DNA from: an uncultured virus (IMG/VR IMGVR_UViG_3300026488_000238)
Lineage: Duplodnaviria > Heunggongvirae > Uroviricota > Caudoviricetes
DNA: 64,000 nt
Direction: 5' to 3' (one strand)
Virus record (IMG/VR): IMGVR_UViG_3300026488_000238
Shown here: in pieces, positions 14,695 through 61,507 of the stretch
Layout: the number at the start of each line of letters is the position of its first letter
Position numbering within the stretch: the first letter of the stretch is position 1
Notes under the pieces: generated by a model
Database searches by the model: none
Told to the model about the DNA's origin: nothing
Seen by the model: only the letters and a program-made list of their open reading frames with translations
Made by a program: the position numbers and the translations under genes

Positions 14695-14706
14695 CGTCTC
14701 ACCCCT

Positions 14707-15123: not shown

Positions 15124-15272
15124 TGTTTTTCCCTCCTTATGTAAACAGTAAGATAATACCCATTTTAAATATAAAACTTGTTGTCGTAAATGACATGTGA
15201 ATATTGCCATTATAAGAGCTGATAACGCTTATATTTTAAAAGAAGATTAACAAAATAAGGAGGCGAATATTT

Positions 15273-17876
15273 ATGGCAACTGAACATGTATTTAGAATTA
15301 AATTGCCGCCGGCAGCTTTTACTACAAATAATAAGGCACAAGTGGCTCAATGGGTAATGAGTGATAAAACTACAAGAATGGTGAGGTATTTCTTTGCTCG
15401 TAATACCAAAGTTAATATTTCCAACAAAATGATTAAGATTTACGATCCACGCGATGATTCTCGGCAAATATTAAATGATCAAATAGTTTTTAATTTTTAT
15501 GAAGAGGATGATTTTATTTTACCGGGCAATAGTGGCTTCACAAAGCAAATGGCGGCGGCCGTAGCTAATTCTACTGTTCGCGAAGTTGATGATTTAACGC
15601 CCATGGATTTTGAAAGCATTTTCTTGCCAGGGAAAAGGTTTAATTACACGTTAAAAGGCGAATATCTTGTGTTAAGTTCCAAACAAAAAATAAATCCGCA
15701 AAAAATAGAAGAAGAGTATAACATGTTAGCAAACAGATATGATGCGGAATATTCTGCATCGAGAAAAAAGGCGTGGCGCGAACTGAAAAGAGTGCAAATG
15801 TTGCATTGGTTTGTTAATTTCCCGGTTGTATTCGGCTTTGATTTGTATGATTTACCGGCAGAAGTTACTGGGCAAAATATTCTTGAAGTAATTACTGATG
15901 TCATGAATCAGACAGGCTCACCCTTTATTGTTTTATATCAAGGGCGCTTATTATCTCCGGATGAAGAAGTGTTATTCAAGAAGGTTTACATTGGCGAAAT
16001 GCAAAAGGCGGCAATGAATGAGCAAAAAGATGTTACAAGGCAAGTAGAAACAGCGACAAAAGCCCAATTGTATGCACAGATATTAACTGAGGCCTTACAT
16101 GAAAAACAAGAAAAGCTAATGGAAGCAAAAATTTCTTTCTTTGTCTTTACCCACCCGGCAGCAACTGAAACAATGAAAAAAACATTGGAGCAATTATATG
16201 CAGTTATTACCTCTACAAGAGAATTTCTTGTGCATAAATTGATAAATGAGGAGCTGGTAGAACGATTTGCGCTGCTATTCCCTAATGCCGTTAAGGAAGA
16301 TCACGATATTCAGGGCTTTGTTACTACTGATGGAATATTTGCAGCAGCCGGGCCGTTTGTAGGCACAAATCTTGAGTTTGGTCGTTATCCATTTGGTAAA
16401 TCTTTTAGAATTCACCCGATGACAACTAATTTCACAGATGCGCAAGAAGCTGGTGCTGCATTTTTTGATCCAATTGAAGCATATCACGATAAAATAAGCC
16501 CTAATGCACATATTATTGTATCTGGTGCATCAGGTTCAGGTAAATCAATGACAGTAAAAGGATTAATACGACGTTTTTCTTTGAAATACGGAGATCGTAT
16601 GCATATTGTTATTGCAGACGCTTCGGGCGAATATACATTAGGAAATGCAATGTTTATGCGTTTCTTGGAAGGTGAAATATACGATTCACAAGCAAAAGAA
16701 GATAGTTTATACGAAGGCGTACCAAGACACCCATTGCTTATTAATCCGATGACAATTGCCGCTGAATTATGGGATAATCCGTCTCTTGATAAACTAAACC
16801 TTGTGCGTGCAGCAATTGATAGATTAGACCAATTTTTAAAAATTGTTGTTGAAAATTTAGATGATTATCAGCGTGGTTTGGTTTTGAATATGGCAAAAGA
16901 GTTGTATTTCCTTGGTCCACCGGTAATTACTGGATATAAATATGATGAGTATGGCGTACGTATACCGGTTATTTCATATCTTTATTGGAATCAATACATA
17001 GAAGCCGTGCAAAAGGCTATGCCCGATCGTACTCCTGACCAACTGGTTGATATTATTTATCAATTAGTGGATACGAGCACTTCCGGAGACAATGGGGTGC
17101 AGCCTATTTACAGATCACCAACATTACAAGATTTATTAATTGTAATGGAAGCTCGTGGTTTAACACGTTCTTCAATATATACAACACTTTATAAAATGGT
17201 GAACGGTGGCGCCGGTGCTATTCTTGGCAGCGAATCAACACATATTTCACTGGATAAGAAGTTAGTAGGTCTTTACGTACCTAATAATATCGATGGTGTG
17301 CCAATACAAGTGCCAACACATGTATTCTATGTTACATTAATTAATCAAATGGTAATGGAATGGGAACACAGATATAATGCTGATCCTTCCTGGCGTGAAC
17401 ATCACTTAATGGTGGTGCTTGATGAGTTTTGGCAGTACTTGGAAACAGACGCCTACGGGCAGGTAAAATTAGCCGATATTCTTGATAGATGGATAAGATT
17501 TGAAAGAAAATTTAACATTTCTTTCATATTGCTCTCTCAGAACTTCCAAGATGACTTTGTCAAAAAACTTCCTGCGCTCTATCAAAACAGTGCTATTAAA
17601 TTAATAGGTAAACAAGAAAAGAGTAGCGAAGATGCAATGGCGGCGGTGACAGGAACTGGAGTGGGTGGCTTACCTATTAATGTTTTAGAAATGATGACTC
17701 AGTTAACGCCTGGACACTTCTTTATTAATACGCCACAGGGAACATCGTTAACATATGTTTCATTGTCACCGCTAGAAATGGCGCTGTATGACACATCTGG
17801 CGCTTATGTGCTTGAAGATGTAATGACGATTGAGGATGTTAGGAAAGGAGGTCAGTCTTATGAAGAAGTCTTTTAA
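15273..17876 (+). CDS. virB4: VirB4/TraC-family type IV secretion ATPase
   Basis: HIIVSGASGSGKS Walker A, VVLDEFWQY Walker B, RKFNISFILLSQ motif, C-terminal PGHFF; 867 aa. Confidence 0.88.
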   Translation: MATEHVFRIKLPPAAFTTNNKAQVAQWVMSDKTTRMVRYFFARNTKVNISNKMIKIYDPRDDSRQILNDQIVFNFYEEDDFILPGNSGFTKQMAAAVANSTVREVDDLTPMDFESIFLPGKRFNYTLKGEYLVLSSKQKINPQKIEEEYNMLANRYDAEYSASRKKAWRELKRVQMLHWFVNFPVVFGFDLYDLPAEVTGQNILEVITDVMNQTGSPFIVLYQGRLLSPDEEVLFKKVYIGEMQKAAMNEQKDVTRQVETATKAQLYAQILTEALHEKQEKLMEAKISFFVFTHPAATETMKKTLEQLYAVITSTREFLVHKLINEELVERFALLFPNAVKEDHDIQGFVTTDGIFAAAGPFVGTNLEFGRYPFGKSFRIHPMTTNFTDAQEAGAAFFDPIEAYHDKISPNAHIIVSGASGSGKSMTVKGLIRRFSLKYGDRMHIVIADASGEYTLGNAMFMRFLEGEIYDSQAKEDSLYEGVPRHPLLINPMTIAAELWDNPSLDKLNLVRAAIDRLDQFLKIVVENLDDYQRGLVLNMAKELYFLGPPVITGYKYDEYGVRIPVISYLYWNQYIEAVQKAMPDRTPDQLVDIIYQLVDTSTSGDNGVQPIYRSPTLQDLLIVMEARGLTRSSIYTTLYKMVNGGAGAILGSESTHISLDKKLVGLYVPNNIDGVPIQVPTHVFYVTLINQMVMEWEHRYNADPSWREHHLMVVLDEFWQYLETDAYGQVKLADILDRWIRFERKFNISFILLSQNFQDDFVKKLPALYQNSAIKLIGKQEKSSEDAMAAVTGTGVGGLPINVLEMMTQLTPGHFFINTPQGTSLTYVSLSPLEMALYDTSGAYVLEDVMTIEDVRKGGQSYEEVF

Positions 17877-19161
17877 TCGATTATTTGCCGGAATAGCGAT
17901 ATTGCTTTTAATAATGGGCTATATTTCAATAGCATTATTGCCTATAGCATCTGCGAAAGGGCTGGATGGTAATTACGATGAAGACGATATGATGATGATT
18001 GCATCGTCAATGTTCTTTGCAACTTGTAATAATGGTGAAAAATATGTAATTGTAACGCCTGATGATGTGTGGACTGCATTTCAGACGGCAGGAAACAATG
18101 TTGGCGACATACCAAAACCGTTAAGTTTTACTACTAATATTGGTGCTAGCGGCTATGGAATGGTCGCAAATAATGATTTGGCAAAAATTTTAACTTCACA
18201 TTGTGATGATGCTAAGCCTATTAGCCCAATAAAAATAGGAGATACAACTTATGACATTACTTTTAAAGTTAATAATAGCATTGCTGATGAATATCTTTCA
18301 GCAGGAGACAGTCAAGATACAACAACAGATACACAACAGGGATCAACAGATACGGAAACATATCCATTTAAAGATAGTGAATGGGTTAAAATGGTTAATA
18401 ATATTAAGGGCGACGAATCAGATCAAATAAAAGAACAAATAAACAAAAGTATTTTTGGAAAAATAGGTTTTACTATATCTCCTGCAACGGCTGGCTACTT
18501 AATGGCCCTTGTTATAGCAGTTAGCATCATAGGTGAAATGATAAAGCAAGCTCAAACACAGCAATTAACACCGGCGCATTTTTTAAAAATTATCGTTGCG
18601 GCTACTGGACAGTATCTAAAAGTCGCCATATTAGGCATGTTTATATTATATTTGGTTAACAATAGAGGAAGTTTCAATGGTGGATTAGCAGTTCACTTTA
18701 TGACAGAGATAGCGTGGCAAATGGCGACTATGTTTACACTGTGGGCACTCAATGCTTCATGGGCAATTATAGCGAATTTTATTGCTAAAATTGCATCAGT
18801 TGCGGCATTCATATTGTTCGCATGGATTTATTATAAAGTAATTAAAATTATTGCATATGTATACGTAGCTAATTTCTTTGTTATAGCAAAATTAATGGTA
18901 ATTTCTGTTATATATCCATTGGTGGAATTTAGGTTTGTTCCTACCCTCTCTGGATATGTAACAAGGCTTATTGATACATCGATACAATCATTCTTTAGTT
19001 ATTCTATTACACTTGCCCTGCTTGCTTCAATTACTACCACGCTTGTTACAAAAACGGCCGGCAATGTTAACCCAGTATTCTTTGCATTTTTATTTATGGG
19101 CGTAATAGGAGTAATTTCTGAAATTCTTGCAAATCAAGTTAAGAATTTATCTACATTCTAA
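17860..19161 (+). CDS. VirB6/TrbL-like polytopic membrane protein
   Basis: Overlaps the virB4 stop; AAAGGAGGT RBS before ATG 17860; signal peptide (ASA|K), exported N-domain, about 6-7 C-terminal TM helices. Confidence 0.6.
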   Translation: MKKSFNRLFAGIAILLLIMGYISIALLPIASAKGLDGNYDEDDMMMIASSMFFATCNNGEKYVIVTPDDVWTAFQTAGNNVGDIPKPLSFTTNIGASGYGMVANNDLAKILTSHCDDAKPISPIKIGDTTYDITFKVNNSIADEYLSAGDSQDTTTDTQQGSTDTETYPFKDSEWVKMVNNIKGDESDQIKEQINKSIFGKIGFTISPATAGYLMALVIAVSIIGEMIKQAQTQQLTPAHFLKIIVAATGQYLKVAILGMFILYLVNNRGSFNGGLAVHFMTEIAWQMATMFTLWALNASWAIIANFIAKIASVAAFILFAWIYYKVIKIIAYVYVANFFVIAKLMVISVIYPLVEFRFVPTLSGYVTRLIDTSIQSFFSYSITLALLASITTTLVTKTAGNVNPVFFAFLFMGVIGVISEILANQVKNLSTF

Positions 19162-19196
19162 GATAAAGCACTAATCAAAGGAGGGGGTAATGCCGC

Positions 19197-22100
19197 ATGA
19201 ATGATAAAATACCAAAAATAAATTTTAACATAGACCAAGCGGTAAAAAACATCAAAATTGATGTTTCTAATATTGATATTAATAAAGTTGATATTCAAAA
19301 TACGGTTCAAAAGCTTAATGCTAAAGTGCCAAAAAATGTTAATATTACAATTTCTCCAAATATTACTCAACAAACAATTGCTAATATTAAGATATCTCCA
19401 AATATTATGCAAACTCAACAGAATATATCCATTCCTGCTAATGTATTAGACAATATTTCAAAAACAGCAGCCACAATAAGCCAACAACAAGCACATATTA
19501 CTGCTTCGCCTATTCCGCCAACTATGCCTCAACATGCAACAGAACCAACAACGTCGTACTATGATATTTCTTCCGGTGAATTCATAGGCGAAGAACCTGA
19601 AAATATTCCACAGCCTGACACGTCGGAAACATATACACAACAACAAACAAATTTCTCTGAAACTAACAATATAATACGCGATAGCTGGCACGAAGTAATG
19701 GTAGATAGAATATGGGAAAACATCCATGATAGTGGTTTCCTTAGATATGGCATTGCTACAAATCCAGATAATTTTGATTCTGTAGTACAAGAGGCTATTA
19801 GCACACTATCAGAGCCCGGCACAACGGGAATGTGGAAAATTGAGGCCAGACATACTTTAGAAGACGCTGTCACCGCTAATCCACAATTGCAGGCAGATAT
19901 TGTAATGACAAGTATGCACATGGAAGGCAGTTATGTTCTCGATAGTAAAACCGTTAATAGTTTAAAGCAAGAATTGAATATTGAAAAGATTATCGACTCA
20001 GAAGAGTTAGATTCTATAATGAATGCTTCTATATTTGCACCAGATGACCCAAATCGCACATTTCAAGAGGATTTTAACGCGTTAATGCATGGCCATAACA
20101 TTCTTCATAGTGATTTAAAACATTATGGCGCTGAATTATTGGAACACTATAACACAAATTATATTCCGGGCCTGTTAGATCAATATGATGCCCTTCAAGA
20201 TAAAATTGCTGAAATAGACGCTCATCTTCAAACTGTAACATCACAAATTGCAGAGGTAGAACAGGCTATCTTTACACAGGGAAAAACGCCAGATGAAGTT
20301 ATTGATATTGTGAATAAAGCAGAAATTGTTAAAGCTGATATTGAAACAATACAACAACTTGAACACATTCCACAACAATACGAAAATGTTAAACGACAAA
20401 TCGCACATGCATTAAAGATTAATCCTGAAGATATTGAAAATGTACAAACTCTTTTGGCAAAATATCAAGATAAAATTCAATCTGATCCTGTTTTACAGCA
20501 AAAAGTGGCGGAACTTCAAAAGCTTGAAGAAGATCTAAAGAAATATAACAATGCTATGCAAAATGTAACCACGCAGTTACAAATTCAGGCTAATGAAGCT
20601 GAACAATTTGCTACTCATTTTAATACTTTGCATCAATTAGTAACAGAAGCGCAAGAAACAAGTAAAGAATTAGTAGAACTTACAACAAAAGCGAACAATA
20701 TTAGGACAGTAGTTAACGAGTATACAAAATTACTATACGAAAACATGCCGGCATATGTTAGACATGAAATTGAAGGTATTGTTGATGTAAACATGTTTAG
20801 TGAAAATTCTCCGATCAACAGGGCGGCCGTTGAACAAGTAATTTACTTTGCAAACAAAGCCGGCTGGCATATGGAAGATGTGTCTCGTATGGTATTCCAG
20901 AATCCTGACGTCATGGTCGCTTTGCGCACAGCATATATAACAAAGGGAAAATATATTGTTCCACCTAATCGTTTTACAATGGAAAAGCTTGTCGGAGAGC
21001 GTGCAAAGAAAGTATTATCACAAATATTAGAACATACCACAGATCCAAATAAGATATTGGCCTATGCAGCGTCTATTAAAGAAAAATATGGGGTAGCCGG
21101 GCAACTTGTAGCTGATCACATTATAGCTCATACCGTCTCTTTGGCAAATGGATATGTGCTTTTAAAGGCACAATTAGAGCTTAGCCACGTTGATGTTACT
21201 AGCTATACTGCGATGGCCCGTTATCTTAAGACACATTCTCAATCTGGACAAGCGGCCACAGCAAGAGTATTTTTAAAAACATTGGGGGTGGATTTGGACA
21301 AAGCTTCTGAACAAGAAATAGCGATAGCATTGCGTAAAATGAATACAATACATAAAGCCGTTCGCAAAAACAAGACATTCAAAAAGGTAGCAAAACGTTT
21401 TGAAAAACTTAACAAAGTAAAAATGGTAGACCATGACTATCTCGTGCTTGATCGAATTATAGATAATGCGCCAGATTTAGAAACGGCAGTAAAAGAATCA
21501 ATGAAATACGTAATGCGACAAGTAGCATTGGAATTTCTTAAGGCTACCGGTGTTAATATTAAGACGTATGGAAAACGATTTATTATTAAGCAATTGAATG
21601 AAACAACAGCCGGTGAGGCATTGAAAACTCTTGCGCGAGATACAAAGCTTTTCATGGCAAAAACAGCTAATACAGCAATTTCATCGGCTGCCGGCATTGG
21701 AACATTTACGCTAAAAACTTTCATGAATGTTGATGGAAATGTGTTTGAATTTTCATTAATTATTAGTAATACCTTATGGGACAAACTACAGGCCACAATA
21801 ATGGCAAATGAATTTCTTAAAATTAGGGTATTATATGCAGAACAATGGCTTAAAAATAAGGCGTTATTGGCAGCCGAATACTTTAGCGCAATTGCCGCAA
21901 GAAATCAAATGGTGGCAAATATTTTGTTATCTGCTCGCATGGGAATAATGTATGTTAAAGGAGCATTTTATTTTCTCTTTAAAGGTTTAGGCGATGTAGC
22001 GTCAATGTATTACAAAGCTTTTAAATTTATAGCTATAACACCATTTAAAGCTAGCGCTGGAATGCTAAAAATTGCAAGAATTGCAACGTATAAGTTAGGC

Positions 22101-25100
22101 AGGCCTGCTTTTGCCTTTTTGCGCAGAATTGGAGTATTTAAATTTGCCCGAGCTTTTACAAAAGGCATTGGCCGATTTGCTACAAGGGGAGTACAGCTTA
22201 AGCGCAAATGGGATAGATTTAAAAAGCAATTTGACCAATTTATGGAAAATCCAATTGAGTATGCCTTTAAGCAATTAGTTGTTAAGAGAGCAGCTAGGGC
22301 AACAATGAAAGTCGGCAAAAAACTAGTAAAGGCAACGGGAAAAATTGCGATGCAAACGGCAAGATTGGCAGCACATGCTTTATTGGCAATAATGAATTTC
22401 TTAATTTCTGTCGTTGTGGCAATAGCTAGCGCTATAGGTTGGTTAGGTATGCTTATTGCCATATTATTAATCTTATTGGTGATATTGTTAGGATTATTTG
22501 GTTTTGGCGCCCCTAATACTGTTGGATGGACAGAAGTAACCGTTGATAATGTAATGTTAACATTGCTTACGCGGCGATATTCAATAGCATCAATTGACCC
22601 AATTAATACATGGTTATCTATACAAGCGCATGAGGGTGATTTGCCATTCCCAGAAAAATTTTATTCTGGCAAAAACAAAGGATTTTTAAATATCGATGGC
22701 AAGGAGTTATATTATAGTTTTGACATACCTGGAGAACAATATCTTACTTATTTATCACAAATTCAGGATGCGGCAGCACAATTGCAAGAAATAACAAATG
22801 TTACTGATACATATATGAACCAGGTGCAACCAATTATTAAAGAAATTATGGGTGGTAGTAACTATGGAATATCCACGGATACATCTCCATATGTGGAAGA
22901 ATATGGGAAATACCTTAATATTAATGGCACAGCCAGAACAACAACTTATGAAAATTTAACATCGTATTATGCAACGACTGATTACTATAGAGATGTAATT
23001 CCTTATGATGGCAAAAAAGGCTATATGCTTTTTAGTAATTATGATTTAAATGTTATTATCCACACGCATCCGCGCGTCATTTTTACCAATGATCCGTTTA
23101 ATCCAAAATTAATTAATATGAACGGCAATGTTAAAAAAATGTTAAGACTCTTTAAGGAATACCACAATAATGAGCCGCTAAATACTTATGCTGGATATGG
23201 TCCTGATGGAACAAAACATGATGGAAACTATGTTGGAGTGCAATTCCTTCCTGGGGTTACGTATTCAGACGGAATATGGTATCTTGATAAGATAGAAGCA
23301 GCACAACAGCCAGGGCAAAATAATATATATCATTTTACACAAATTGGAAGAATAGAGGCGTCTTATAGTTATTACGACGCGGCATCCAACGTAGTTATTC
23401 CAGACAAGAAACAATGCAATCTGCATAATTCGCATAGTAAAATAATATTCGAATGTTATAACATCGGTGGAAGGGGAAACGCTAGTATTCACTTAGTTAA
23501 GAGTGGTTATATTGTATATCGTGGCAGAATTATTATATATACACCTAAAGGAAACTTGCATTTTAATGTAGGATATATCGTGCCCGACGTTGCCAAACAT
23601 GTTTATGATTCGCCATTATCTTTAGATCTAGTATCTATGATGTCAGCCGTTACAAAATTAGAGCTGTATAAAGAAGTAACACTTAATCGTATCGCTGCAG
23701 TTTTCAATAATACAGTGCGCTTTGGCCAAATGGTAGAGGCAACTTATTATAATATCGACTCTTCTTTGGACCAACAAGAAGATGTGGCAAAAATGCTGAT
23801 GTCTATCCAAGATGCTATGACTAACTCTTTCGGACACAAGAAAATAGGAACGATGTGGACATATCAATCTCCTTTGATGGGCTTTGCGTTTGGCCCAGAT
23901 TACAACATTCTCGATGGTAAAAAATATTTAAGCAATGGTTATAAAAAAGTATTACAAGATATGTATATGGTTTGGGTAAATAGAGACAAAAATGAATTAT
24001 ATCTAGATTCCCGCAGCGCTATCAATACAATGTTATACATGCTTAATTATGCGGCTTATAAGAGTGTATTGAATCACGGAGTATGTTCTCCTAAAGCAGC
24101 TGAAACAGAATTAGCATGGAATATTTGCGATAAAGCTCCGGGGGACATAGTCGGCGGTATAAATGCGATAACTCAACCATTTGTCGGTAAACTTAATGAG
24201 TTTAATTTTGTTAATGGCAGTGAGAAAAAAGCATTTAAAACTCTTGCCGATGTTGCTCGTTACAGTTTTGGACAGCAGAATAACAATAATTTAGTATTTA
24301 ATATAGATTCGCCAGGTGTCACTCTATTTGGTGGAAGTAAAACAAGCTTTTCTCAATCGCTAATGGTGTATTCGTTATATCAATTGTATTTACACATGAA
24401 ACTTGCCGAAACGGCCAGATTGCAAAAACAAGTCGCAAGTTCTCCGTATTTAGGAGTAGAAGCTATTCATTTTGACGTTGACCCGATCGCTAAATGGTTG
24501 CCGTCTGACGAAGCTAGCCAATGGAATAGTATTAAACAACGAATATTCCGCTACATTATGGAACATGGATGGAGCCGCACCATTTATAACGTTATAGGCC
24601 AAATGGGTAATTTCTTGGAAGGCATTATACAAAGTATCTTTGGCAAATCGGCATCTATAGAAACTCAGCTTGTAGAAAAGTATTATCTCGATCTCATTGC
24701 TTCTAATGTGGACATAGATACAGCAGTTGGTTTGTGGAAAGGAGAAAACTCTGCATATAATAAATCGATAAACATATTAGAAGAAAATGCGTCATTATTC
24801 AGTAATCTTTACAATTTACCTGCATGGGCTGGTATTATACCAATTAATCCACAATTCTTAACTGACAGCAATAAAAAAGTTAGACAATTGCGAAATGGAT
24901 TACTTAACTCGTATTATGATGGTATTATGGCCGACAAAGGGACAATGGGATTAATTATTCCAGAAATGAGTCTTATGCAAAAAGATTTGACAACGGATGA
25001 TAGTGATCAAAAGTTCGGTTTTGCCGGGCCGATTATAGTAGCTGATCAAGCAGATAAAAGTGAGTTAACTGACATTTTCCATACTCTTGCCTACAAAACA

Positions 25101-28100
25101 GTTCCGCCTATTACAAAAGGATGGAAAAACTATGGCGAATTCAAACTTAATGGTCTTAATGTTGGCGATATTGTGGTAGTGCATACTCTTGCAGAAAAAG
25201 AAGAAGATATTTCAAAGGCAGGAATACCAACACTTGCTTTACTTGATAGATTGCCGCGATTAGATACCGGCGCAAGTTGGATTTCTCTATATCAACTAGT
25301 ATTAGCATACAAAGTAAGATATGATAAACCATCTGAAACATGGGCAGAATTTGCACCCAAACATGAGGCAGTACGTGAGGAAGTAAAAGAATTTGTAGAT
25401 TCATATACACCACCACCAAATTGCTTTGTCTCAGTAATTGAAGAAGGCGCAGATACAACATATATTGATTTTGCTAGCCCTATTAATATACCGACAAATC
25501 TTATGTATACTACATATTATGACACATCATTTGGCATAGAATATAACAAATCTACGTATTCTGATGCGGACATTAAACGAGACGAGTTCGCTAAAATAAC
25601 TTTGCCGTCTAATGATGTTAATACTGTGTTTAATGATGCATTGTTACAAGCAATAATGTCAAATAGTAAAATTAGTAGGCCTTGGAGTAGTGGCAATGAA
25701 ATTGCAAACACTGGTATTGAAAGTTATTTAGATACAAAAGAAGTAAAGACAAAAGCGAATACTGATGCTTACAGATGGACAATTACTCTTACATGTTGCC
25801 ATACCAATGAAGAGGGAAAGAGAGTCTGTGATGATCCAGTAACATTGGCAAAATATAAAGCCGACTACGAATCTAAGGAATTTACATTAAATAGTTACAC
25901 TTCAAAAGACAAAGATTATTTTGATGGTCTTGAATATGTAAAATTAGCTGAAAACATCGATAAAATGCGATATCCTGTCACCGACGCTTATTCTGCGCTA
26001 AGAGCCTCATATTATCATCCTGTGCCAATGCTTGGTAATATAATGACAATTACTGACGTATTTATGAAAATCTTGCCTTCAATTTCCAGTGTGCAGCAAG
26101 TAATGACAGGCGCTTTGCTTATGGTTAATAGAGACATGATATCGCAAGTCAATAAGTACAGCCCAAGTCAATGGACAACGTTAAGATGGTCTACAGATTC
26201 TATGAATATTACTGACGATTTCAGTCTTAGTAAGGACCTTAGTATTGATAAAATTACATTTGATAAAGCACAAAATATGCTTAAGGTACAATCAACGGTT
26301 AAATCTGTTGTTGAAATAAAATGTGACAATAATAGCGCAATAGGCGGCGGAATGTGTTCTGAAACATCTACTACCGTTGTTAGAAATGACAAAATTATAG
26401 GCGCAATGCTTGGATACGGCGTAAACAACATAACCGTTAACAATGATGAGCCTCAATTATCATCAACACAAACAATTGTCGCTAATTTAAAAAATAATGT
26501 AAACAGCTATAAAGATATGCTATGGTATCACTACCTTATTAATAATAAACTGATCGAAACGCCAGTCGAATCGCGAAAATATGTTAAAACGTATCATCAA
26601 TATACCTTTGCGTGGAATTATATACCAACCTTGCTTGGCAGTATTTATCTTGGATTCTCTGGCATCAATAATTTTGCAGAAGGAACATGGGATATAGGTG
26701 AGCAATCTATGTCTAAAGAACAGTATTTTGACATTGTTAAATTTGCGTGGAGTACACCGTACACAAATACCCGCGCCGTGTTAAAAGATAATCTGAAATT
26801 ATCATTGCCTGTATATATCGGAAAATACGCAACATATCCACAGGTTGAGAAGCCTGTCAAAGATTGGCAAACTGAACAATCATATCAGGCCATGCTACAG
26901 GATCAACAAAATATAAAAAGATTAGATGTATACGCTATTAGCCGTTTAGTGCCAAATACATATCCGGTGTCCCCAATATTCGTATTTTCTGCTGAGAGAT
27001 TCAAAAATGGCGCTAAACCATTGCACGTGCCTGTCCCGATAGATGTTTTATTCATATACACTAATAATGATGATGTACCGCTTCGAAAATACTTTGAAAA
27101 GAAAGAAAAAGAAAACGTTTTTACCCAACTTGCTGGTCGTTATAACGATCCACATGTTAAAGAGCTGTTATTAAAACGAGTTATCGGAGACGCTGCTTTT
27201 AATGCTATTATGGAAAACCTTGATGAAGAGGAAAAGGCAAAATATCTATCAATGGTTAAAGTAGAAACTGTCCCTTATAAAGTAACAGATTACCGAACGA
27301 GTGGAGCAATTAGAACAACTATGTCAGCATATTTAATACGATTGCTGATACCGGGTTATATTGCAGTTCCTATAGCATTTGATTCTGCGGGATATAAAGC
27401 AATATATCAGCTATATGACTCCACATCCTTTGTTGGCGCAGATTTCTTCACTAGCTCCGATTTCTATAATGTTGATACACATCAAGGCGCCGACTTAAGA
27501 GGAACATATCTTAAATTCTTGAAGGGTACAAGTAAACATTATACTGATTTAGTAAGATATGCCTTAAACACACATCGAAATGCCTTGAAATACAGCAAAG
27601 GACCGGACTTTGTAGATGCTATGGCATATGTAGGCTATCCATTCTCATTCCCTGTTTATCAATATGCATTGCTTTATAGTAGTGATAAGGGGCTAGATAA
27701 AATCATACCTAGCGGAGCTGCATTAGAACGAGCTGAAACAGAAGCCCTTAAAGAATACCAAGAGACAGAAGATGGATCAAATAACGATAATAATAATAAA
27801 GACTTACTTAAAGACCTGTTAGATAAAGTAGGAAAACAGAAACCGGGTGAATCTAAAAGGGCATGGGAAGAATTGTTCCCGATAGCTGCTAACGCATGGA
27901 ATAAAATGTATCAAGTAAGCGTATCTTTTGCAGATTATTATGCATGGCAAAACTTTGAAGCGTTATTAACAGTTGCAAAATACAAAGCGGCAACTAATAG
28001 CGGGTATTCATATTCATATTTCTCTCCTACAGCAGACATGATGAATTTGATTATTTATACGGATCCACTATTACAAAAAGCCCTTGTTGATGTTGACCAA

Positions 28101-29000
28101 TATGTCGATGAGTTGACTAAGTTAACACCAGAATCTTATGCCTTTGAGATTGATAGTAATCATGTATTTTATCCAGTGTGGGCTGGTGGCGAATTCTGGG
28201 TACCATATACAGGAACTATTACAATGTCAGATGGGACACAAATTTATTTCAGGCAGCCGGTTGATGATGCTGGACATCATGGTAGCGTAGGATTAAGCTT
28301 ATATGGTGTAGCATTGTGGGCTACAATGTTTGATCCAAAAATTGAAGCATTTATGTCTGTTGGAACTAAATGGGATGTTAATAAATGGCGTAATACTCTT
28401 CGCACTCAGGCATCCTTATGGGACGAGATATTAAGGTCTGATTCAATGTTACATAATAGAATTGGTACACAAGAACTTGCGAAGATTGAAAGCGCTATGC
28501 AATTAAAAGACATTCCTGATAACAAAACATTTGATAAAATTGCGTCACAGCTTCCATGGCGCACGGAAATTTCACCAATATTTACAAATCTTGCCCAATA
28601 TAATTGGAAAAATGCACCTGGAAAGATGTCATTTGAGAGAGTTGTCATAGTTAATGGAGGCTCCTCAATAAATGACATACATCTACGAAGAGAAGGTATT
28701 GAAAACTGGAGTCCATATTGGAAAATGCTATCACCATATTATAACGTTTCATCTAATTACCCATTCGCTAACATTACTGTTTGGTATTACAATAATGATG
28801 TGAGGTTAAAAGCATTTTATGATGGCAGATACAGTGCCGGTGGAGATTTAAGCAAGCCAGAAAGTACAGATGAAGATGCTACTAATGAAGAATATAAGTA
28901 TTTCAGAATATTTACGCCAATACCGGCAGAATATATGGTGGGACGCTTCTACGGAGACTTGTTTGATATTCAATTTGTTTGGGGCTCACTTTGGCACTAA
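19197..29000 (+). CDS. Giant 3,267-aa single-pass membrane protein in the virB4 operon
   Basis: Uninterrupted ORF. N-terminal low-complexity and coiled-coil region, then a K/R/A-rich amphipathic stretch, a long hydrophobic segment at about aa 1060-1105, and ~2,150 aa of Y/N/D-rich predicted extracellular sequence. Confidence 0.85.
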   Translation: MNDKIPKINFNIDQAVKNIKIDVSNIDINKVDIQNTVQKLNAKVPKNVNITISPNITQQTIANIKISPNIMQTQQNISIPANVLDNISKTAATISQQQAHITASPIPPTMPQHATEPTTSYYDISSGEFIGEEPENIPQPDTSETYTQQQTNFSETNNIIRDSWHEVMVDRIWENIHDSGFLRYGIATNPDNFDSVVQEAISTLSEPGTTGMWKIEARHTLEDAVTANPQLQADIVMTSMHMEGSYVLDSKTVNSLKQELNIEKIIDSEELDSIMNASIFAPDDPNRTFQEDFNALMHGHNILHSDLKHYGAELLEHYNTNYIPGLLDQYDALQDKIAEIDAHLQTVTSQIAEVEQAIFTQGKTPDEVIDIVNKAEIVKADIETIQQLEHIPQQYENVKRQIAHALKINPEDIENVQTLLAKYQDKIQSDPVLQQKVAELQKLEEDLKKYNNAMQNVTTQLQIQANEAEQFATHFNTLHQLVTEAQETSKELVELTTKANNIRTVVNEYTKLLYENMPAYVRHEIEGIVDVNMFSENSPINRAAVEQVIYFANKAGWHMEDVSRMVFQNPDVMVALRTAYITKGKYIVPPNRFTMEKLVGERAKKVLSQILEHTTDPNKILAYAASIKEKYGVAGQLVADHIIAHTVSLANGYVLLKAQLELSHVDVTSYTAMARYLKTHSQSGQAATARVFLKTLGVDLDKASEQEIAIALRKMNTIHKAVRKNKTFKKVAKRFEKLNKVKMVDHDYLVLDRIIDNAPDLETAVKESMKYVMRQVALEFLKATGVNIKTYGKRFIIKQLNETTAGEALKTLARDTKLFMAKTANTAISSAAGIGTFTLKTFMNVDGNVFEFSLIISNTLWDKLQATIMANEFLKIRVLYAEQWLKNKALLAAEYFSAIAARNQMVANILLSARMGIMYVKGAFYFLFKGLGDVASMYYKAFKFIAITPFKASAGMLKIARIATYKLGRPAFAFLRRIGVFKFARAFTKGIGRFATRGVQLKRKWDRFKKQFDQFMENPIEYAFKQLVVKRAARATMKVGKKLVKATGKIAMQTARLAAHALLAIMNFLISVVVAIASAIGWLGMLIAILLILLVILLGLFGFGAPNTVGWTEVTVDNVMLTLLTRRYSIASIDPINTWLSIQAHEGDLPFPEKFYSGKNKGFLNIDGKELYYSFDIPGEQYLTYLSQIQDAAAQLQEITNVTDTYMNQVQPIIKEIMGGSNYGISTDTSPYVEEYGKYLNINGTARTTTYENLTSYYATTDYYRDVIPYDGKKGYMLFSNYDLNVIIHTHPRVIFTNDPFNPKLINMNGNVKKMLRLFKEYHNNEPLNTYAGYGPDGTKHDGNYVGVQFLPGVTYSDGIWYLDKIEAAQQPGQNNIYHFTQIGRIEASYSYYDAASNVVIPDKKQCNLHNSHSKIIFECYNIGGRGNASIHLVKSGYIVYRGRIIIYTPKGNLHFNVGYIVPDVAKHVYDSPLSLDLVSMMSAVTKLELYKEVTLNRIAAVFNNTVRFGQMVEATYYNIDSSLDQQEDVAKMLMSIQDAMTNSFGHKKIGTMWTYQSPLMGFAFGPDYNILDGKKYLSNGYKKVLQDMYMVWVNRDKNELYLDSRSAINTMLYMLNYAAYKSVLNHGVCSPKAAETELAWNICDKAPGDIVGGINAITQPFVGKLNEFNFVNGSEKKAFKTLADVARYSFGQQNNNNLVFNIDSPGVTLFGGSKTSFSQSLMVYSLYQLYLHMKLAETARLQKQVASSPYLGVEAIHFDVDPIAKWLPSDEASQWNSIKQRIFRYIMEHGWSRTIYNVIGQMGNFLEGIIQSIFGKSASIETQLVEKYYLDLIASNVDIDTAVGLWKGENSAYNKSINILEENASLFSNLYNLPAWAGIIPINPQFLTDSNKKVRQLRNGLLNSYYDGIMADKGTMGLIIPEMSLMQKDLTTDDSDQKFGFAGPIIVADQADKSELTDIFHTLAYKTVPPITKGWKNYGEFKLNGLNVGDIVVVHTLAEKEEDISKAGIPTLALLDRLPRLDTGASWISLYQLVLAYKVRYDKPSETWAEFAPKHEAVREEVKEFVDSYTPPPNCFVSVIEEGADTTYIDFASPINIPTNLMYTTYYDTSFGIEYNKSTYSDADIKRDEFAKITLPSNDVNTVFNDALLQAIMSNSKISRPWSSGNEIANTGIESYLDTKEVKTKANTDAYRWTITLTCCHTNEEGKRVCDDPVTLAKYKADYESKEFTLNSYTSKDKDYFDGLEYVKLAENIDKMRYPVTDAYSALRASYYHPVPMLGNIMTITDVFMKILPSISSVQQVMTGALLMVNRDMISQVNKYSPSQWTTLRWSTDSMNITDDFSLSKDLSIDKITFDKAQNMLKVQSTVKSVVEIKCDNNSAIGGGMCSETSTTVVRNDKIIGAMLGYGVNNITVNNDEPQLSSTQTIVANLKNNVNSYKDMLWYHYLINNKLIETPVESRKYVKTYHQYTFAWNYIPTLLGSIYLGFSGINNFAEGTWDIGEQSMSKEQYFDIVKFAWSTPYTNTRAVLKDNLKLSLPVYIGKYATYPQVEKPVKDWQTEQSYQAMLQDQQNIKRLDVYAISRLVPNTYPVSPIFVFSAERFKNGAKPLHVPVPIDVLFIYTNNDDVPLRKYFEKKEKENVFTQLAGRYNDPHVKELLLKRVIGDAAFNAIMENLDEEEKAKYLSMVKVETVPYKVTDYRTSGAIRTTMSAYLIRLLIPGYIAVPIAFDSAGYKAIYQLYDSTSFVGADFFTSSDFYNVDTHQGADLRGTYLKFLKGTSKHYTDLVRYALNTHRNALKYSKGPDFVDAMAYVGYPFSFPVYQYALLYSSDKGLDKIIPSGAALERAETEALKEYQETEDGSNNDNNNKDLLKDLLDKVGKQKPGESKRAWEELFPIAANAWNKMYQVSVSFADYYAWQNFEALLTVAKYKAATNSGYSYSYFSPTADMMNLIIYTDPLLQKALVDVDQYVDELTKLTPESYAFEIDSNHVFYPVWAGGEFWVPYTGTITMSDGTQIYFRQPVDDAGHHGSVGLSLYGVALWATMFDPKIEAFMSVGTKWDVNKWRNTLRTQASLWDEILRSDSMLHNRIGTQELAKIESAMQLKDIPDNKTFDKIASQLPWRTEISPIFTNLAQYNWKNAPGKMSFERVVIVNGGSSINDIHLRREGIENWSPYWKMLSPYYNVSSNYPFANITVWYYNNDVRLKAFYDGRYSAGGDLSKPESTDEDATNEEYKYFRIFTPIPAEYMVGRFYGDLFDIQFVWGSLWH

Positions 29001-29050: not shown

Positions 29051-29320
29051 TTGATAGTCAATACAATACCTTTGCATTATGGAAGATTATGGATAGATAT
29101 AGCTAGTCAAAATATCGCAAATGCCAATGTGTCAAATTATACAGCGAAACAACTTGGTGGCAGTCCTGAAACTCCGATTATTGAAGACACAAATGAGCCC
29201 GTGGATCTTGCGAAAGAATTAATAGAACTACGTATTGCAACTGTTTATTATAAAGCAAATGCGTTAGCAATTAAAACAAAAATTGAATTATATGATTATG
29301 TGTTGGATTTGTTTGTCTGA
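29051..29320 (+). CDS. Minimal flagellar basal-body rod (FlgB/FlgC-like) protein
   Basis: N-terminal rod signature IASQNIANANVSNY and C-terminal VDLAKELIEL..A...YKANALAIKT; TTG start with AAGGAGG RBS. Confidence 0.75.
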   Translation: MIVNTIPLHYGRLWIDIASQNIANANVSNYTAKQLGGSPETPIIEDTNEPVDLAKELIELRIATVYYKANALAIKTKIELYDYVLDLFV

Positions 29321-54361: not shown

Positions 54362-57300
54362 ATGGATATAAAAACCGTAATAGGAGAGCCATTTATTAAA
54401 GCCATAAAAGTATGGTGGTATTTATGGCAGCACACGTTTGGGATTCCGAGTGTTGGTAACGTAACAGACCATTTGCCATCGGTAAATATTGGTAACACGC
54501 AAACGGCGCTAATACTAATATTAAAAGGTTTGTTATTTTTAGTTTTGCTGTGGTTGGCATGGAAAGTTATTAGTTTTATATGGTTTGAAATGTATGACGC
54601 ACGCCCAAAGGTATGGTTTAAAATTATTCCTGCTGCCAAAGCTACATTTCAAGTAGACATGGTAAAAAGGCTAATAAATACTTCGTATCAATTAGCAGTG
54701 CCTGACAGTGCTTCGTGGTGGGATTATATTAAATATCGCATAGTACCGCCGCCATCAATTACGTGGCAATACACACCGCTGGGCATTTATCTGGGCGTGC
54801 CAAAAGAATACGAGCATACATTTACAGAAGTGCTTGAAGAAATGAGCGCTGGCAATAAAAAATTCGCATATGTCAAATATATGTTTCAGCCTTATGACAT
54901 GAAAAATGTAGCGCTTGTGAAACTGAAAAAAATCGTATTAGAGCAAGATTCAGTAAAGATTGAAGACTGGAGCGTATCTGATGAAGCAGTTGAGGGAACT
55001 CCACAAAGTAGACTAGAAAAGGGTATTGATACTGTTATTGATCCGGCCTCTCAGTTGTTGCATTATGCCGTTAAAACTGGTGAAGCGATGCAAATTACTT
55101 TTAGGCCTTTGTGGAAAACCTCTATTTGGACAAGAAAAAGTAAAGGTAAATTCTTATTAAAAATAAGATATCGAGGGCGTGATATTGTATCGCAATTGCC
55201 GCCGGTTGCTGAGTTTACTACTACAATGAGGGTGCCAATTCTTGGTAAATTATGGGATTTTCGCGCATATAACGGCGCTGTTGGCAGTATTTTTGAGCCA
55301 GCTGTTATATTGCCTTCTGAAAATGAGTTGGCTACTTTTATGTTATTCCCGGCAAACGCTTCGACGGTGGCCACTGAATCAGAAGAGGCTAATTTACCGT
55401 TTGCATCTTTAGATTACTTTTTCTTTAAGTATCTTGGAAAAATACCAAAGCGTAAATTAGCACGCAGTAAGATGGCTGTTAAACTTATTAAGAAAATGTA
55501 TCAGGATTTAACTGATTTTATAGAGGCCCCTTCTATATATGACGAAGAAATAAAAGGATTACCAAAGGGAAACGCTCTAATTGACATGTTAATGAATGAT
55601 ATGACAAAAGATTATCAAAAATATATAAGCACCCATTCCACCATTCCAAAGAAAGTAAAAGAATTACCGCTCTATAAGCGCCTTCCTAATGAAAAAGTAA
55701 TTGTTAATATTCCAAAGGTGTTGAAAAAAGTAGAAAAAGCATTACAAAAGAAGCGTTTAAGTGAAAAAGAGGCGAGTAAATTAGCATTTTTAATGGCTAC
55801 GATAAAAACTAAGATCGTTGAGCATCCAACGCCTAATTTGTTAACAGAACTAGCGTTTACGTCTCCGCCGGGCAAGCCAGATGATGCCTCTACAAAAGCA
55901 GCCATAAAAGTCGGTTATGCGCTAAATAAAGGTGAAATTACTGATGTTGGCATACTTCGCTATTCGCCCAATAAAAAGTATGTAAAACAGTTCACTGATT
56001 CAAAAGGTAAAGTTATTACTATTCAATCTAACGCTGACACAGTAAGGGCTCCTCATATTCATGTTATAGGTGCTACCGGTTCAGGTAAGTCAGCATTTCT
56101 TAAGGCTTTTTCAATAGAGGCATTATATAAAGGCTCCACTGTTATTTTATTAGAGCCACACAATGACATGTCTATTGATATTTACAATTATGCGCCGGAT
56201 TTTACAGATCCAGTGTTTCTTATGCCTGGTTATCGTGGTTTGCGCCTATTGCCAAAAGTAGATTTAACAGATCCAAATATTCATCAGAACTATGATGCAA
56301 TTATTAACATTATTATTCAAGGCTTCAGAGGTTTCTTTGCGACGAGAGAAAGATCTGGTAGTCCTGTAACAATGTGGTCTAAGAATGTAGAAGACGCAAT
56401 ATCTGCAGCATTTCAAACGGTGGGCTTATTAGATAATCCTACTGTTGATGATTTAATTAGCGTGTTAGTTGATGTTGATTATCGTCAACAAATTCTTACG
56501 CATGCTGCGCAGGATTATCGCTTACGTCCGATAGTGCAAAATATTCAAGAAAAAATGTATGCATTAGAGGGGATATTTAACACTAAAGGAGAACATGCAG
56601 CAGCCTTAAGAGCTAGTATTTTAGGTAAATTAGAAACACTTAAAAGGACAGACACTCATAAGCAATTCTTAGTTGGTGATTTTGATTTTGATGAAATATT
56701 CTTCACGCCGCAGCCCAGGCTTGTTGCTATTACATTTCCTTTACAATTTGACAGCGAATACATTATGCTTGTATCGTCTTTTATTTTCTCCAAAATAACA
56801 CAATATGCTTATAAACGCAAAGATTGGGTAGAAAATGATTGGCCTTTAATTTACTTTGTAATAGATGAGGCGCGCTCTATGTTTTCTTCGCCTTTGTTGC
56901 TTAGTAAAATGTTAAATGAGTTGCGTAAGTTCGGCGTAGGCATTGTAGTTTCTCACCAGAGCTTTGCGCAATTTGGCATAGAAAAAGATGCATTTGCTGC
57001 GGCGATGTCTGCTGCTCCACAAAGAATTATTCTTAATGTTGATTCTAAAGAAGATGTCGAACAATTGCGTAGTGTTTTAAAGGACAATATTAACATGCTT
57101 GGAACGTTAGCAGTAGGAGACTATTTACATGTTCACAAAACAGTCTATAGAGCGCATGCGTATTGGTATAAAGATAGATTCCCCAAATTGCGTGATTTAC
57201 AGCTTGACGATGTACAAATGCGCATACCGCTTGATATTCTTGGCGCGCGTGTATTTTTCCCATCTGTATTAGAGGAAGCTAATGTTGTCATTGATACAGA

Positions 57301-57934
57301 GCCGTATTATACAAAATTGTATGGATGGAATAAATTAGCTGTTCCTAAGCAAATAGAAGAGGAGTGGGACAAATATACAGAGGACGTTCTTTATCCAGAA
57401 GCAGCCCCAATTTCTCTCATTCATCTTGGATTAATAGCTAGCAACAAGAAAAATCCATGGTGGCTTGAAAAGTTTGGCTTTGCTTACCTACAACGCCGAG
57501 ACAGATTAGATACGAAAAATAAAGAATATACTGATATTATGAAAGAGCCAATTCTCTTTGGACAAGTGCATGATGACTTAATATTAGTAGTGCCGCTAAT
57601 TAAAGACAATGTGCGCCCTGATGACGATATATTTGATAATCTCAAGTCATTATTGACAATGCTTGTGTCTAGTTCTAAATTCCAGTATGCCTTATTCCCT
57701 ATTACACCGGAAGATGTTATCCAAAATGTAGAAACAAAGAGATTACAAATTTATATTTATGTTGGGCGTACTAAATCAGTTACGGAAACCGAATTTAATA
57801 ATTTCTTAAAACGCATTATAGTTAATGTAGATGCCACGAGCAAGACAATGAGGCGACAAGGCAAACGTCCTGAAGATGTTTTACATGTTATACCGTTGCC
57901 GACGGAAAAAGAATTATTTAAAAAGGGGGAATGA
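54362..57934 (+). CDS. VirD4/TraG-like type IV coupling ATPase (HerA/FtsK superfamily) with N-terminal TM and extra C-terminal domain
   Basis: PHIHVIGATGSGKS Walker A, LLEPH, YFVIDEA Walker B, ELRKFGVGIVVSHQSFAQ motif; TM at about aa 48-75. Confidence 0.8.
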   Translation: MDIKTVIGEPFIKAIKVWWYLWQHTFGIPSVGNVTDHLPSVNIGNTQTALILILKGLLFLVLLWLAWKVISFIWFEMYDARPKVWFKIIPAAKATFQVDMVKRLINTSYQLAVPDSASWWDYIKYRIVPPPSITWQYTPLGIYLGVPKEYEHTFTEVLEEMSAGNKKFAYVKYMFQPYDMKNVALVKLKKIVLEQDSVKIEDWSVSDEAVEGTPQSRLEKGIDTVIDPASQLLHYAVKTGEAMQITFRPLWKTSIWTRKSKGKFLLKIRYRGRDIVSQLPPVAEFTTTMRVPILGKLWDFRAYNGAVGSIFEPAVILPSENELATFMLFPANASTVATESEEANLPFASLDYFFFKYLGKIPKRKLARSKMAVKLIKKMYQDLTDFIEAPSIYDEEIKGLPKGNALIDMLMNDMTKDYQKYISTHSTIPKKVKELPLYKRLPNEKVIVNIPKVLKKVEKALQKKRLSEKEASKLAFLMATIKTKIVEHPTPNLLTELAFTSPPGKPDDASTKAAIKVGYALNKGEITDVGILRYSPNKKYVKQFTDSKGKVITIQSNADTVRAPHIHVIGATGSGKSAFLKAFSIEALYKGSTVILLEPHNDMSIDIYNYAPDFTDPVFLMPGYRGLRLLPKVDLTDPNIHQNYDAIINIIIQGFRGFFATRERSGSPVTMWSKNVEDAISAAFQTVGLLDNPTVDDLISVLVDVDYRQQILTHAAQDYRLRPIVQNIQEKMYALEGIFNTKGEHAAALRASILGKLETLKRTDTHKQFLVGDFDFDEIFFTPQPRLVAITFPLQFDSEYIMLVSSFIFSKITQYAYKRKDWVENDWPLIYFVIDEARSMFSSPLLLSKMLNELRKFGVGIVVSHQSFAQFGIEKDAFAAAMSAAPQRIILNVDSKEDVEQLRSVLKDNINMLGTLAVGDYLHVHKTVYRAHAYWYKDRFPKLRDLQLDDVQMRIPLDILGARVFFPSVLEEANVVIDTEPYYTKLYGWNKLAVPKQIEEEWDKYTEDVLYPEAAPISLIHLGLIASNKKNPWWLEKFGFAYLQRRDRLDTKNKEYTDIMKEPILFGQVHDDLILVVPLIKDNVRPDDDIFDNLKSLLTMLVSSSKFQYALFPITPEDVIQNVETKRLQIYIYVGRTKSVTETEFNNFLKRIIVNVDATSKTMRRQGKRPEDVLHVIPLPTEKELFKKGE

Positions 57935-60492: not shown

Positions 60493-61507
60493 TAAAATTG
60501 GTGTAGTAATTCCTAATATTTATCAAATCGGAGCAGCAGTTGATCAAAATGTAGATTTAGAGTTAGTTTATTCTGTTTTAAAGCAAGATAAAAAAGAATA
60601 CAATGGCGTATTGATATTATCAAATAAAAACAAGCATAATGTAATGCCTTATTCACAATTCTTGCGCATGATTAGAACATTATCTAGCGTAATTTTAATT
60701 ACATTTGATTCACAAACACTGGAGACCTTTATGCGGGAAAAATTGGGAATTACTAACCAAATGCAAATTAATGCTGTTTTAATGCGCTATCGTGGCATTA
60801 TCACTAAAATTGCACAAGAGTTGCAAAAGACTAGATTAGTATTCATCATTAATGCCAAAGACGCAATAAAGCTTGGTATTCTTGCAAAAAATCCACAAGA
60901 CGCCGGCCTTGTATTGCAACGTATCGATAATCCTAATCCTGTATCGATGGAAGACATTGTGGAATTGTTAACTGGAATTGCTCGTATTGTAAACGAAGTG
61001 GATATTATTTACAAACAAGGATTGTCTGCTATTACAAATAATGAAGATAGCAGATACTTTATAGCGTTTCCATCAAAATTTAAGCAATTTATAAACAAAA
61101 TTAAGAAAGCAGAAGAGCGTGGAGAAATTTATGCAGTAGAATATTTGCTTCCGACAGTTTGGACAGCCACAATGACTACGACGTATGAAGATCGTAAGAA
61201 GAATCTTTTATCCTACTCGATAATCGTGTTAATATTAGCGTTAACGCTATTTTTCCCGAAATTTTCTGTAACTACATCGTTTGGAAACTCAACAGATGTT
61301 ACCATGGTTAATCTTTGGGGAAAAATAATCACGCCGCCGACAGTGCGAGTGTTTGATAAAATATACGACAACGATTTAAAGAAATTAACAGTAGATATTC
61401 CGACGCCAAAAGAGTTTAAAGGACTAGATATCTTATTTATTCCTCCGTCAGGTGGTGAACAGCAAAGTGCGACAGGCAATCAAACAGCTACTACAAATAA
61501 TCACTAA
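60479..61507 (+). CDS. Membrane protein in the pilus operon (possible platform/accessory component)
   Basis: Helical cytoplasmic region and one TM near aa 245-260; overlaps both neighbours. Confidence 0.55.
   Translation: MGKNSKIGVVIPNIYQIGAAVDQNVDLELVYSVLKQDKKEYNGVLILSNKNKHNVMPYSQFLRMIRTLSSVILITFDSQTLETFMREKLGITNQMQINAVLMRYRGIITKIAQELQKTRLVFIINAKDAIKLGILAKNPQDAGLVLQRIDNPNPVSMEDIVELLTGIARIVNEVDIIYKQGLSAITNNEDSRYFIAFPSKFKQFINKIKKAEERGEIYAVEYLLPTVWTATMTTTYEDRKKNLLSYSIIVLILALTLFFPKFSVTTSFGNSTDVTMVNLWGKIITPPTVRVFDKIYDNDLKKLTVDIPTPKEFKGLDILFIPPSGGEQQSATGNQTATTNNH

Follow-up and report, generated by a model that had tools for sequence, protein, structure and literature searches.

In Gram-positive conjugation systems, VirB1 homologues are membrane-anchored proteins with extracellular enzyme domains, according to the accessible parts of two studies (PMC12857230; PMC12102498). 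PrgK of pCF10, the CD1108 family (NF045974), Tn916 Orf14, and the Bacillota family represented by protein P0008 (genomes G227, G033, and others) all sit just behind virB4 or virB6. They lack a signal peptide and combine a cytoplasmic N-terminal part that varies in length with a basic run before one transmembrane (TM) helix in N-in orientation. The giant protein described here, which is encoded in a 64,000-nucleotide stretch of DNA (hereafter the window), and its orthologue P0006 share this slot and, by prediction, this build. However, their outer parts are ~2,100 aa long, compared with 300–600 aa in the VirB1-like hydrolases; no SLT, muramidase, M23, NlpC/P60, or CHAP domain is detected in them, and the stalk domain of VirB1-like families has no match in either giant.

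Proteins of the VirB1 type may also mediate cell contact. The lactococcal VirB1-like proteins TraAd/TrsAd cause cell clumping and resemble the giant in their N-terminal anchor, although they differ from it in having only 423–434 aa and in keeping recognizable hydrolase and CHAP domains (PMC11067333, in part). Inactive VirB1 adhesins have been proposed in the accessible part of PMC12857230, which also names as an open question the route of DNA through the envelope in conjugation systems that have no outer-membrane core complex or pilus.

Other described systems are comparable in size or context. The extended VirB6-4 proteins of Anaplasma, with 4,322 and 9,935 aa, demonstrate that giant membrane subunits of type IV secretion systems (T4SSs) exist; however, these are polytopic proteins that are extended at the C-terminus and belong to a diderm effector system, whereas the VirB6-like gene in the window is separate and of normal size (PMC7648143, in part). 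The four to six or more TM helices of an extended VirB6 also differ from the single hydrophobic block of the giant. In the integrative and conjugative elements (ICEs) of Mycoplasma, CDS19 is an essential, conserved membrane protein encoded in the cds5–cds19 channel module with the virB4-like cds17 in a wall-less host (PMC6030558, in part). CDS19 is likened to the giant by context rather than by size or topology, and the giant has no sequence match to the Mycoplasma ICE models in NCBIfam. Conjugative Hodor megaplasmids encode giant surface proteins along with a barely recognizable VirB6, but those giants have a signal peptide, S-layer/MBG repeats, and a sortase anchor, and are found in a separate operon in elements of gut hosts (PMC12934698, in part). 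Finally, the giant has neither the signal peptide nor the LPxTG with TM segment of PrgB-type sortase-anchored adhesins. Our literature search, which had incomplete coverage, found no description of the giant or its element. The reading that we favor, tentatively and at somewhat less than an even chance, is that the giant is a VirB1-slot subunit in which a very large ectodomain, non-catalytic and serving mating-pair contact, has taken the place of the hydrolase domains.

Genomic Context and Gene Integrity

The first-pass annotation had described a 3,267-aa ORF as the third gene of a virB4–virB6 operon, and the coordinates, spacing, and strand agree with this order (Table 1). The virB6-like gene overlaps the upstream ATPase gene, and its stop codon is separated by 35 nt from the start of the giant gene on the same strand. 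The giant ORF begins with ATG, with a GGAGG-type site 10–17 nt upstream. The product of the first gene is a divergent VirB4/TraC-like ATPase by NCBIfam matches that stay well under the model cut-offs (E 2.5e-12), and its best match is a Mycoplasma ICE model. The virB6-like product has an N-terminal hydrophobic segment, a soluble part of ~170 aa, and ~5 further segments. Because it has about six hydrophobic segments but no family match at E ≤ 0.05 in Pfam or NCBIfam, the name "virB6" is a topological label. A scan for promoters and terminators gave results near chance level.

Table 1. Coordinates of the giant gene, its parts, and other transfer-related features in the window.
Feature	Coordinates	Strand	Basis and remarks
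Divergent VirB4/TraC-like ATPase, 867 aa	15273..17876	+	NCBIfam VirB4_plasma/TraC/CD1110 sub-threshold; 43% identical orthologue P0002
virB6-like polytopic membrane protein	17860..19161	+	Hydropathy; ORF listed from TTG 17830
Giant gene, 3,267 aa	19197..29000	+	ORF call; orthologue P0006, 2,976 aa
aa 1–1053, Cys-free N-part, predicted cytoplasmic; low-complexity start, coiled coil ~320–510, basic amphipathic from ~700	19197..22355	+	
aa 1054–1111, hydrophobic block, one strong TM helix after a marginal one	22356..22529	+	Conserved in P0006
aa 1112–3267, predicted extracellular, non-repetitive, Tyr 7%, all 10 Cys, no recognized domain	22530..28997	+	
Strain-variable stretch, aa 1261–1453	22977..23555	+	Two alleles, depth 72 and 31, 26/219 nt differ; listed changes mostly silent
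Conserved block, aa 1700–1888	24294..24860	+	z = 9.0; 31% identity over 84 aa
Conserved block, aa 2444–2742	26526..27422	+	z = 8–9; 24–25% identity over about 300 aa
VirD4/TraD-like coupling ATPase, 1,190 aa, long N-part	54362..57934	+	Sub-threshold TraD/CedD/TrwB matches
ComGA/PilB-like pilus ATPase	61452..62534	+	Family scans

The giant ORF is genuine; fusion during assembly, which had been raised as a way in which the annotation could fail, does not explain it. The DNA is present in at least six runs of hydrothermal-vent metagenomes, with no RNA data set among the matches listed; it contains only short chance repeats and has uniform codon-position GC over the ORF. In run X1, possibly the source of the sequence, the depth along the ORF is flat (~88–108), and overlapping contigs span 16526–28442, while the pieces listed leave 28442–28656 uncovered; three other runs provide patchy coverage at low depth. 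Among the 40 strain differences listed (of 137 in total), 32 are inside the giant ORF and alter 29 codons, with 22 silent changes, seven missense changes, and no stop, some of these at low depth. A fusion is rejected given the flat depth, the tiling contigs, the mostly silent variants, and an independent collinear orthologue.

Contigs of the deep run break at 16526–16550, 22977–23555, and 28442–28656. At the first of these, the virB4 of a second element shares sequence with the window. The latter two are within the outer part of the giant, and this grouping of contig breaks and strain variation provides a weak hint of surface variation. Loose ends near 23918–23951 were considered as a further allele and are read instead as a short chance match.

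Several neighboring genes have features of their own. Directly behind the giant, an 89-aa ORF (29051–29320, +) resembles flagellar rod/hook proteins (FlgB, E 1e-4; FlgC, E 9e-4) with their N-terminal and C-terminal ends fused together, which is odd for a mobile element; by eye, its ribosome site can pair as a hairpin with the sequence after the stop codon of the giant. Divergent from virB4, three small genes (13719–15210, −) each encode an N-terminal hydrophobic helix and have no family matches in Pfam or NCBIfam. Two of these products start with K-G followed by hydrophobic residues, which by eye we take to be similar to class III (pilin) signal peptides. Further upstream, a gene at 10530–11099 (−) encodes a protein that is anchored in the membrane, resembles glutaredoxin/thioredoxin (Pfam E 2e-4), and has only one Cys; it could aid disulfide formation in exported proteins.

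Domain Organization and Predicted Topology

The hydrophobic block is the only one in the giant by hydropathy, and it includes a marginal helix (aa 1062–1080) and a strong helix (aa 1083–1101). As the first-pass annotation had noted, a basic run precedes this segment; it begins at aa 1031, and the 30 aa ahead of the block contain eight K/R and no D/E. The corresponding 30 aa in P0006 contain eight K/R and at most one D/E, and are likewise followed by a strong TM helix after a marginal one. PrgK has a comparable charge asymmetry ahead of its TM helix. All cysteines are located after the TM block (10 of 10 in the giant and 14 of 14 in P0006), mostly in pairs spaced 5–24 residues apart, and the C-terminal parts of both giants are rich in aromatic residues, with enrichment in Tyr and Trp. 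The K/R asymmetry, the position of the cysteines, and the Tyr/Trp-rich C-terminal parts support an N-in, C-out topology with disulfides outside. Given the marginal first helix, a hairpin of two TM helices instead of a single one is possible.

The description of the first ~1,060 aa as cytoplasmic and coiled-coil fits a Cys-free helical N-part that is predicted to be cytoplasmic, although the coiled coil covers only part of it. Coiled-coil-like heptads are found at ~aa 320–470, and weak matches to Rad50/SMC-type coils at aa 323–512. The long C-terminal part is indeed non-repetitive, as self-BLAST revealed no internal repeats. Neither giant has a signal peptide. A sortase anchor was also not found in the giant, which has no N- or C-terminal hydrophobic segment and no LPxTG.

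Orthologous Locus and Sequence Conservation

A search for homologues beside virB4 genes, which had been proposed as a check on the annotation, identified an orthologue in the same slot of another element. Among 8,000 scored candidates, the window VirB4 has one relative (43% identity), encoded in locus L001; among the metagenome matches listed there is at least this one locus, which has 30% GC compared with ~35% in the window. In L001, virB4 is followed by a gene for a 486-aa polytopic protein, by an additional gene for a 516-aa bitopic protein, and then by a giant gene with the full product P0006. The giants are thus found behind their own virB4 and virB6-like genes in both known elements, and the virB6-like product has a weak pairwise match (E 7e-7) to its 486-aa positional counterpart in L001. 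The 516-aa product (L001 14124–15674, +) has a Thr/Ser-rich linker and a VirB8-like position, and it has neither a counterpart in the window by tblastn nor a convincing family. When 16 ORFs of L001 were compared with the window by tblastn, matches were confined to dUTPase, VirB4, and the giant; the thioredoxin-like gene upstream in the window does not match the gene at the same place in L001. The two elements co-occur in run X1 at similar depths, with ~73–76 for the element of L001 (at window 16383–17731) compared with ~100.

The two giants are collinear over aa 407–781/132–499, 914–1140/713–920, 1700–1888/1386–1595, and 2276–2742/2048–2493 (giant/P0006), with z-scores of 6–9 relative to locally (window-) shuffled controls. 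By the same measure, aa 1112–1690 (z 0) and 2760–3267 (z 2) have no detectable conservation, and the C-terminal 500 aa of the giant are among its least conserved parts (z 2.0). A profile built from both giants and covering aa 1690–2548 found only P0006 among 1.84 billion representatives. Homologues of the giant were also not found in plasmids, in 50,697 phage records, or by pattern scans of IMG/VR, and pattern scans for the VirB4 in GTDB and IMG/VR found nothing. A word-index search with aa 1000–3267, which was limited to near lengths, returned none among 7,225 candidates and missed the real orthologue too. The ESM Atlas gave no usable match, a result that indicates neither novelty nor absence. 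By sequence comparison, the outer part is a two-member family, which the first-pass annotation had not recognized.

This conservation bears on two alternatives. It is improbable that the giant is a cargo surface protein or an exported substrate that is merely located in the operon. Megaplasmids do bear very large surface proteins that are not part of the T4SS core, as in Hodors (PMC12934698, in part), and the genes downstream of the giant are unrelated. However, the slot is kept in two elements with VirB4s that are only 43% identical and with different flanking genes, and the giant combines a VirB1-like anchor with the absence of a signal peptide or sortase tail. Rather unlikely as well is a structural conduit, in which oligomers of the ectodomain would form a DNA tube or scaffold through a thick or unusual envelope, in the manner of VirB8/VirB10, and the N-part would couple to VirB4/VirD4. 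Large domains on either side of a single TM helix, a size that could span tens of nm, and the lack of any VirB8/9/10 family match in the window are consistent with a conduit, as is the suggestion that the VirB10 job in Gram-positive systems is probably done by an unidentified subunit (PMC12857230, in part). On the other hand, low conservation is unlike that of a DNA channel, and the separate bitopic gene ahead of the L001 giant could be the VirB8 equivalent. Moreover, the giant matches no channel family and no NTF2-like (VirB8-type) domain in Pfam, a fold that is usually detected only by structure.

Comparison with VirB1-Like Proteins

The net charge in the 100 aa before the TM helix is +20 to +30 in PrgK and six CD1108-family proteins, and +22 and +19 in the giants. 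In a small control of 13 proteins with a strong internal TM helix, the giant, PrgK, and the orthologue took the top three places for positive charge ahead of that helix. An HMM of the CD1108/PrgK TM region did not find the giants. Conversely, a profile of the basic run and TM segment of the giants matched in 22 of 301 Bacillota genomes at E ≤ 0.05, and one of the 15 loci inspected, that of the third-best match, encodes the SLT+M23 protein P0008 in the order virB4, membrane gene, virB1. The E value of this match (0.0037 per genome over 301 genomes) is at chance level. The P0008 family is present in 8 of 30 genomes of its Bacillota class, with SLT and/or M23 in five of six further members scanned. 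The VirB4 profile of the giants' elements matched in five of these 30 genomes (four within ~3–4 kb of virB1 genes), in the Walker A region only, and in 1 of 301 genomes of the phylum sample. The loci L110 and L123 (G227 and G033) belong to an ICE-like family in this small class, in which virB4 and membrane genes accompany a virB1 of the SLT+M23 type; L123 has a pilus-type ATPase nearby.

A full stalk HMM of a Bacillota VirB1-like family ranked the giant first among 1,967 ORFs (20.3 bits, basic run and TM segment only); P0006 ranked third, with CD1108 proteins in second and fourth place. With TM-only HMMs, the giant falls to rank 30–79 because of the composition correction in HMMER, and P0006 holds third or fourth place. 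Alignment of the anchor/stalk region by hhalign had a probability of 47% over 45 columns. A likeness between P0008 and the giants in a Cys-tipped hairpin was not supported by a family HMM.

These patterns suggest that the shared architecture of basic run plus TM helix is specific enough to pick out VirB1-like proteins, short of proof of descent. The likeness was found partly in a circular manner and is largely compositional, so homology of the giants to VirB1 is not proven. Accordingly, the slot and the basic-run-plus-TM match of the original comparison with VirB1-like wall hydrolases stand, but common ancestry does not follow from them. The giant lies beside virB4 and virB6 (the latter by topology only) in a conjugation cluster and has a predicted N-in/C-out membrane anchor. 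It has no extracellular lytic domain by sequence, and the CD1108 family model (NF045974) in NCBIfam matches neither the whole protein nor its fragments. With no lytic domain detected, the giant does not belong to VirB1 as defined; it may still work in that position.

Search for Lytic and Adhesin Domains

No NlpC/P60, CHAP, SLT, or M23 domain had been recognized at first sight, and searches with Pfam, NCBIfam, PHROGs, PDB, and VirB1-derived HMMs all concur. For both giants, whole and in fragments, the four databases returned only coiled-coil noise and scattered weak matches that differed between the two giants, and giant fragments had no lytic domain in Pfam even at E ≤ 1. Searched with HMMs of the SLT+M23 and CD1108 ectodomains, or with PrgK by phmmer, the giants scored below the best of 200 shuffles. 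Likewise, no adhesin repeat or fold was found in the giant; a standard lytic or adhesin domain that would account for its outer part is not detected by sequence.

The main rival to a non-catalytic ectodomain is that the giant is a true, very divergent VirB1, with a long stalk and at least one domain, of unrecognized sequence, that degrades the wall or an S-layer. This rival is possible although unlikely, and it ranks first among the alternatives because no other lytic gene was seen: lytic families are absent from all 44 ORFs of the window and all 14 of L001 (both contigs being partial), so the lytic job may still be that of the giant. The exact VirB1 slot and anchor build are consistent with it, and the blocks aa 1700–1888 and 2444–2742 could be enzyme cores. 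Within the former, a conserved Glu is followed after 14–16 residues by W-x-G-x-x-P-I-x-P (aa 1863–1885), which by eye we take to recall the motif spacing of a lysozyme fold. However, this candidate lacks the Gln of GLMQ and is unsupported by Pfam, the PDB profile, and the ectodomain HMMs. The catalytic consensus motifs are not conserved in both giants, and the profile searches and shuffled controls above also argue against an enzyme. Since AlphaFold2 models from two-row alignments of the giants had low confidence (pLDDT 26.4 and 31.4), the giants may still contain a cryptic enzyme fold. The non-catalytic reading is favored because SLT and M23 are easily detected in the nearest VirB1-like proteins and absent from the matches of the giants, and because the C-terminus, the usual site of the VirB1 enzyme, is poorly conserved in the giants.

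Carrier Element and Host

In a Pfam scan of all 44 ORFs in the window, 29 matched no family at E ≤ 0.05. Recognized genes encode RecA, dUTPase, thymidine kinase, FtsH, an NAD-dependent ligase, a primase zinc finger, a VirD4-like ATPase, and a pilus ATPase. The latter two are part of a second transfer cluster (53118–62534, +) with three bitopic membrane proteins, which is possibly a divergent type IV pilus system. A relaxase, VirB8–10, and a lytic enzyme were not recognized in the window, which is from a 72-kb and probably partial contig. The carrier is most likely a large conjugative plasmid-like element.

A phage tape-measure or ejection protein, or an assembly artefact, is very improbable. 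The long helical N-part with a hydrophobic block fits a phage protein, and RecA, ligase, thymidine kinase, dUTPase, and tRNAs are also present in jumbo phages. Nevertheless, the window contains no phage structural genes: 37 of its ORFs have no structural PHROG match except for the Walker A of two ATPases to a terminase profile. Fragments of the giant have no structural PHROG match either, and the searches of phage records and IMG/VR described above were negative; the flat depth and the independent orthologue argue against an artefact.

The host is bacterial. Five bacterial-type tRNAs (Ala-CGC, Lys-CTT, Pro-CGG, Thr-CGT, and Ser-GCT) are located at 44798–44977 (+) and 52713–52972 (−); four have C at the wobble position in an AT-rich element, and an extended −10 promoter-like site lies ahead of the minus-strand cluster. 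BLAST of the tRNAs gave no pointer to the host, the matches of the ligase scan have only 37–38% identity, and RecA has at most 50% to any match. For FtsH, the best PDB match scores 409 bits against 378, a gap too small to name a host; we take the 409-bit entries to be from Thermotoga and the 378-bit entries to be from Aquifex. Orphan genes are also present. A 427-aa orphan (1182–2465, +) without a Pfam match has, by eye, what we presume to be PD-(D/E)xK nuclease-like and C-terminal Cys-cluster motifs similar to those of Cas4/AddB. A 1,112-aa orphan (49368–52706, +) ends in a coiled coil and starts with a region that by eye is similar to restriction enzymes, and in a group of large orphan genes (44998–49343, +) those at 46530–47792 and 48000–49343 both end in LHL.

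Proposed Role of the Giant Protein

From sequence features, we infer the topology of the giant, its membership in a T4SS complex, and its contact function. The first-pass interpretation is thus supported in part, for the slot and the build, while a channel, adhesin, or envelope-breaching function and an unusual host envelope stay hypothetical. In the favored reading, the giant would occupy the VirB1 slot in a conjugation (type IV secretion) machine of monoderm type that has strongly diverged, encoded by a large mobile element in a bacterium from hydrothermal vents. It would be synthesized without a signal peptide; the helical N-part of ~1,050 aa would remain cytoplasmic, the basic run would rest on the inner membrane face, and a single helix would span the membrane. 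A disulfide-stapled ectodomain of ~2,150 aa would then be displayed outside the cell, in place of the small SLT/M23/NlpC/CHAP enzymes. This large non-catalytic ectodomain may span the donor envelope and hold or recognize the recipient surface, and thereby serve in mating-pair contact and stabilization. A contact role is favored because VirB1-type proteins can act as adhesins (PMC11067333, in part). Against it, no adhesin repeat or fold is seen, and the pilus ATPase and pilin-like genes of the element itself could supply adhesion.

A broader and more speculative proposal, which we consider unlikely as a whole, is that vent thermophiles harbor a new class of large conjugative elements in which the wall-hydrolase subunit has been replaced by a ~2,100-residue ectodomain with folds that are entirely new. 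Such an ectodomain would act as an envelope-spanning conduit or a recipient-recognition device suited to an unusual host envelope (sheath, S-layer, or toga), with the 1,000-residue cytoplasmic arm coupling to the ATPases. If true, it would account for the part of monoderm-type T4SSs that crosses the wall and has so far been missing.

The giant is conserved in the VirB1 slot, its predicted ectodomain is four- to sevenfold the usual length, and no known domain is recognized in it, which makes it a direct candidate for a new solution to envelope crossing. Its ectodomain represents ~2,100 residues of uncharted and probably thermostable folds, and the two known elements represent a family of large conjugative vent elements without earlier description. 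Because the outer part is like nothing known and is found in only one other vent element, it may be a new cell-contact or envelope-crossing part.
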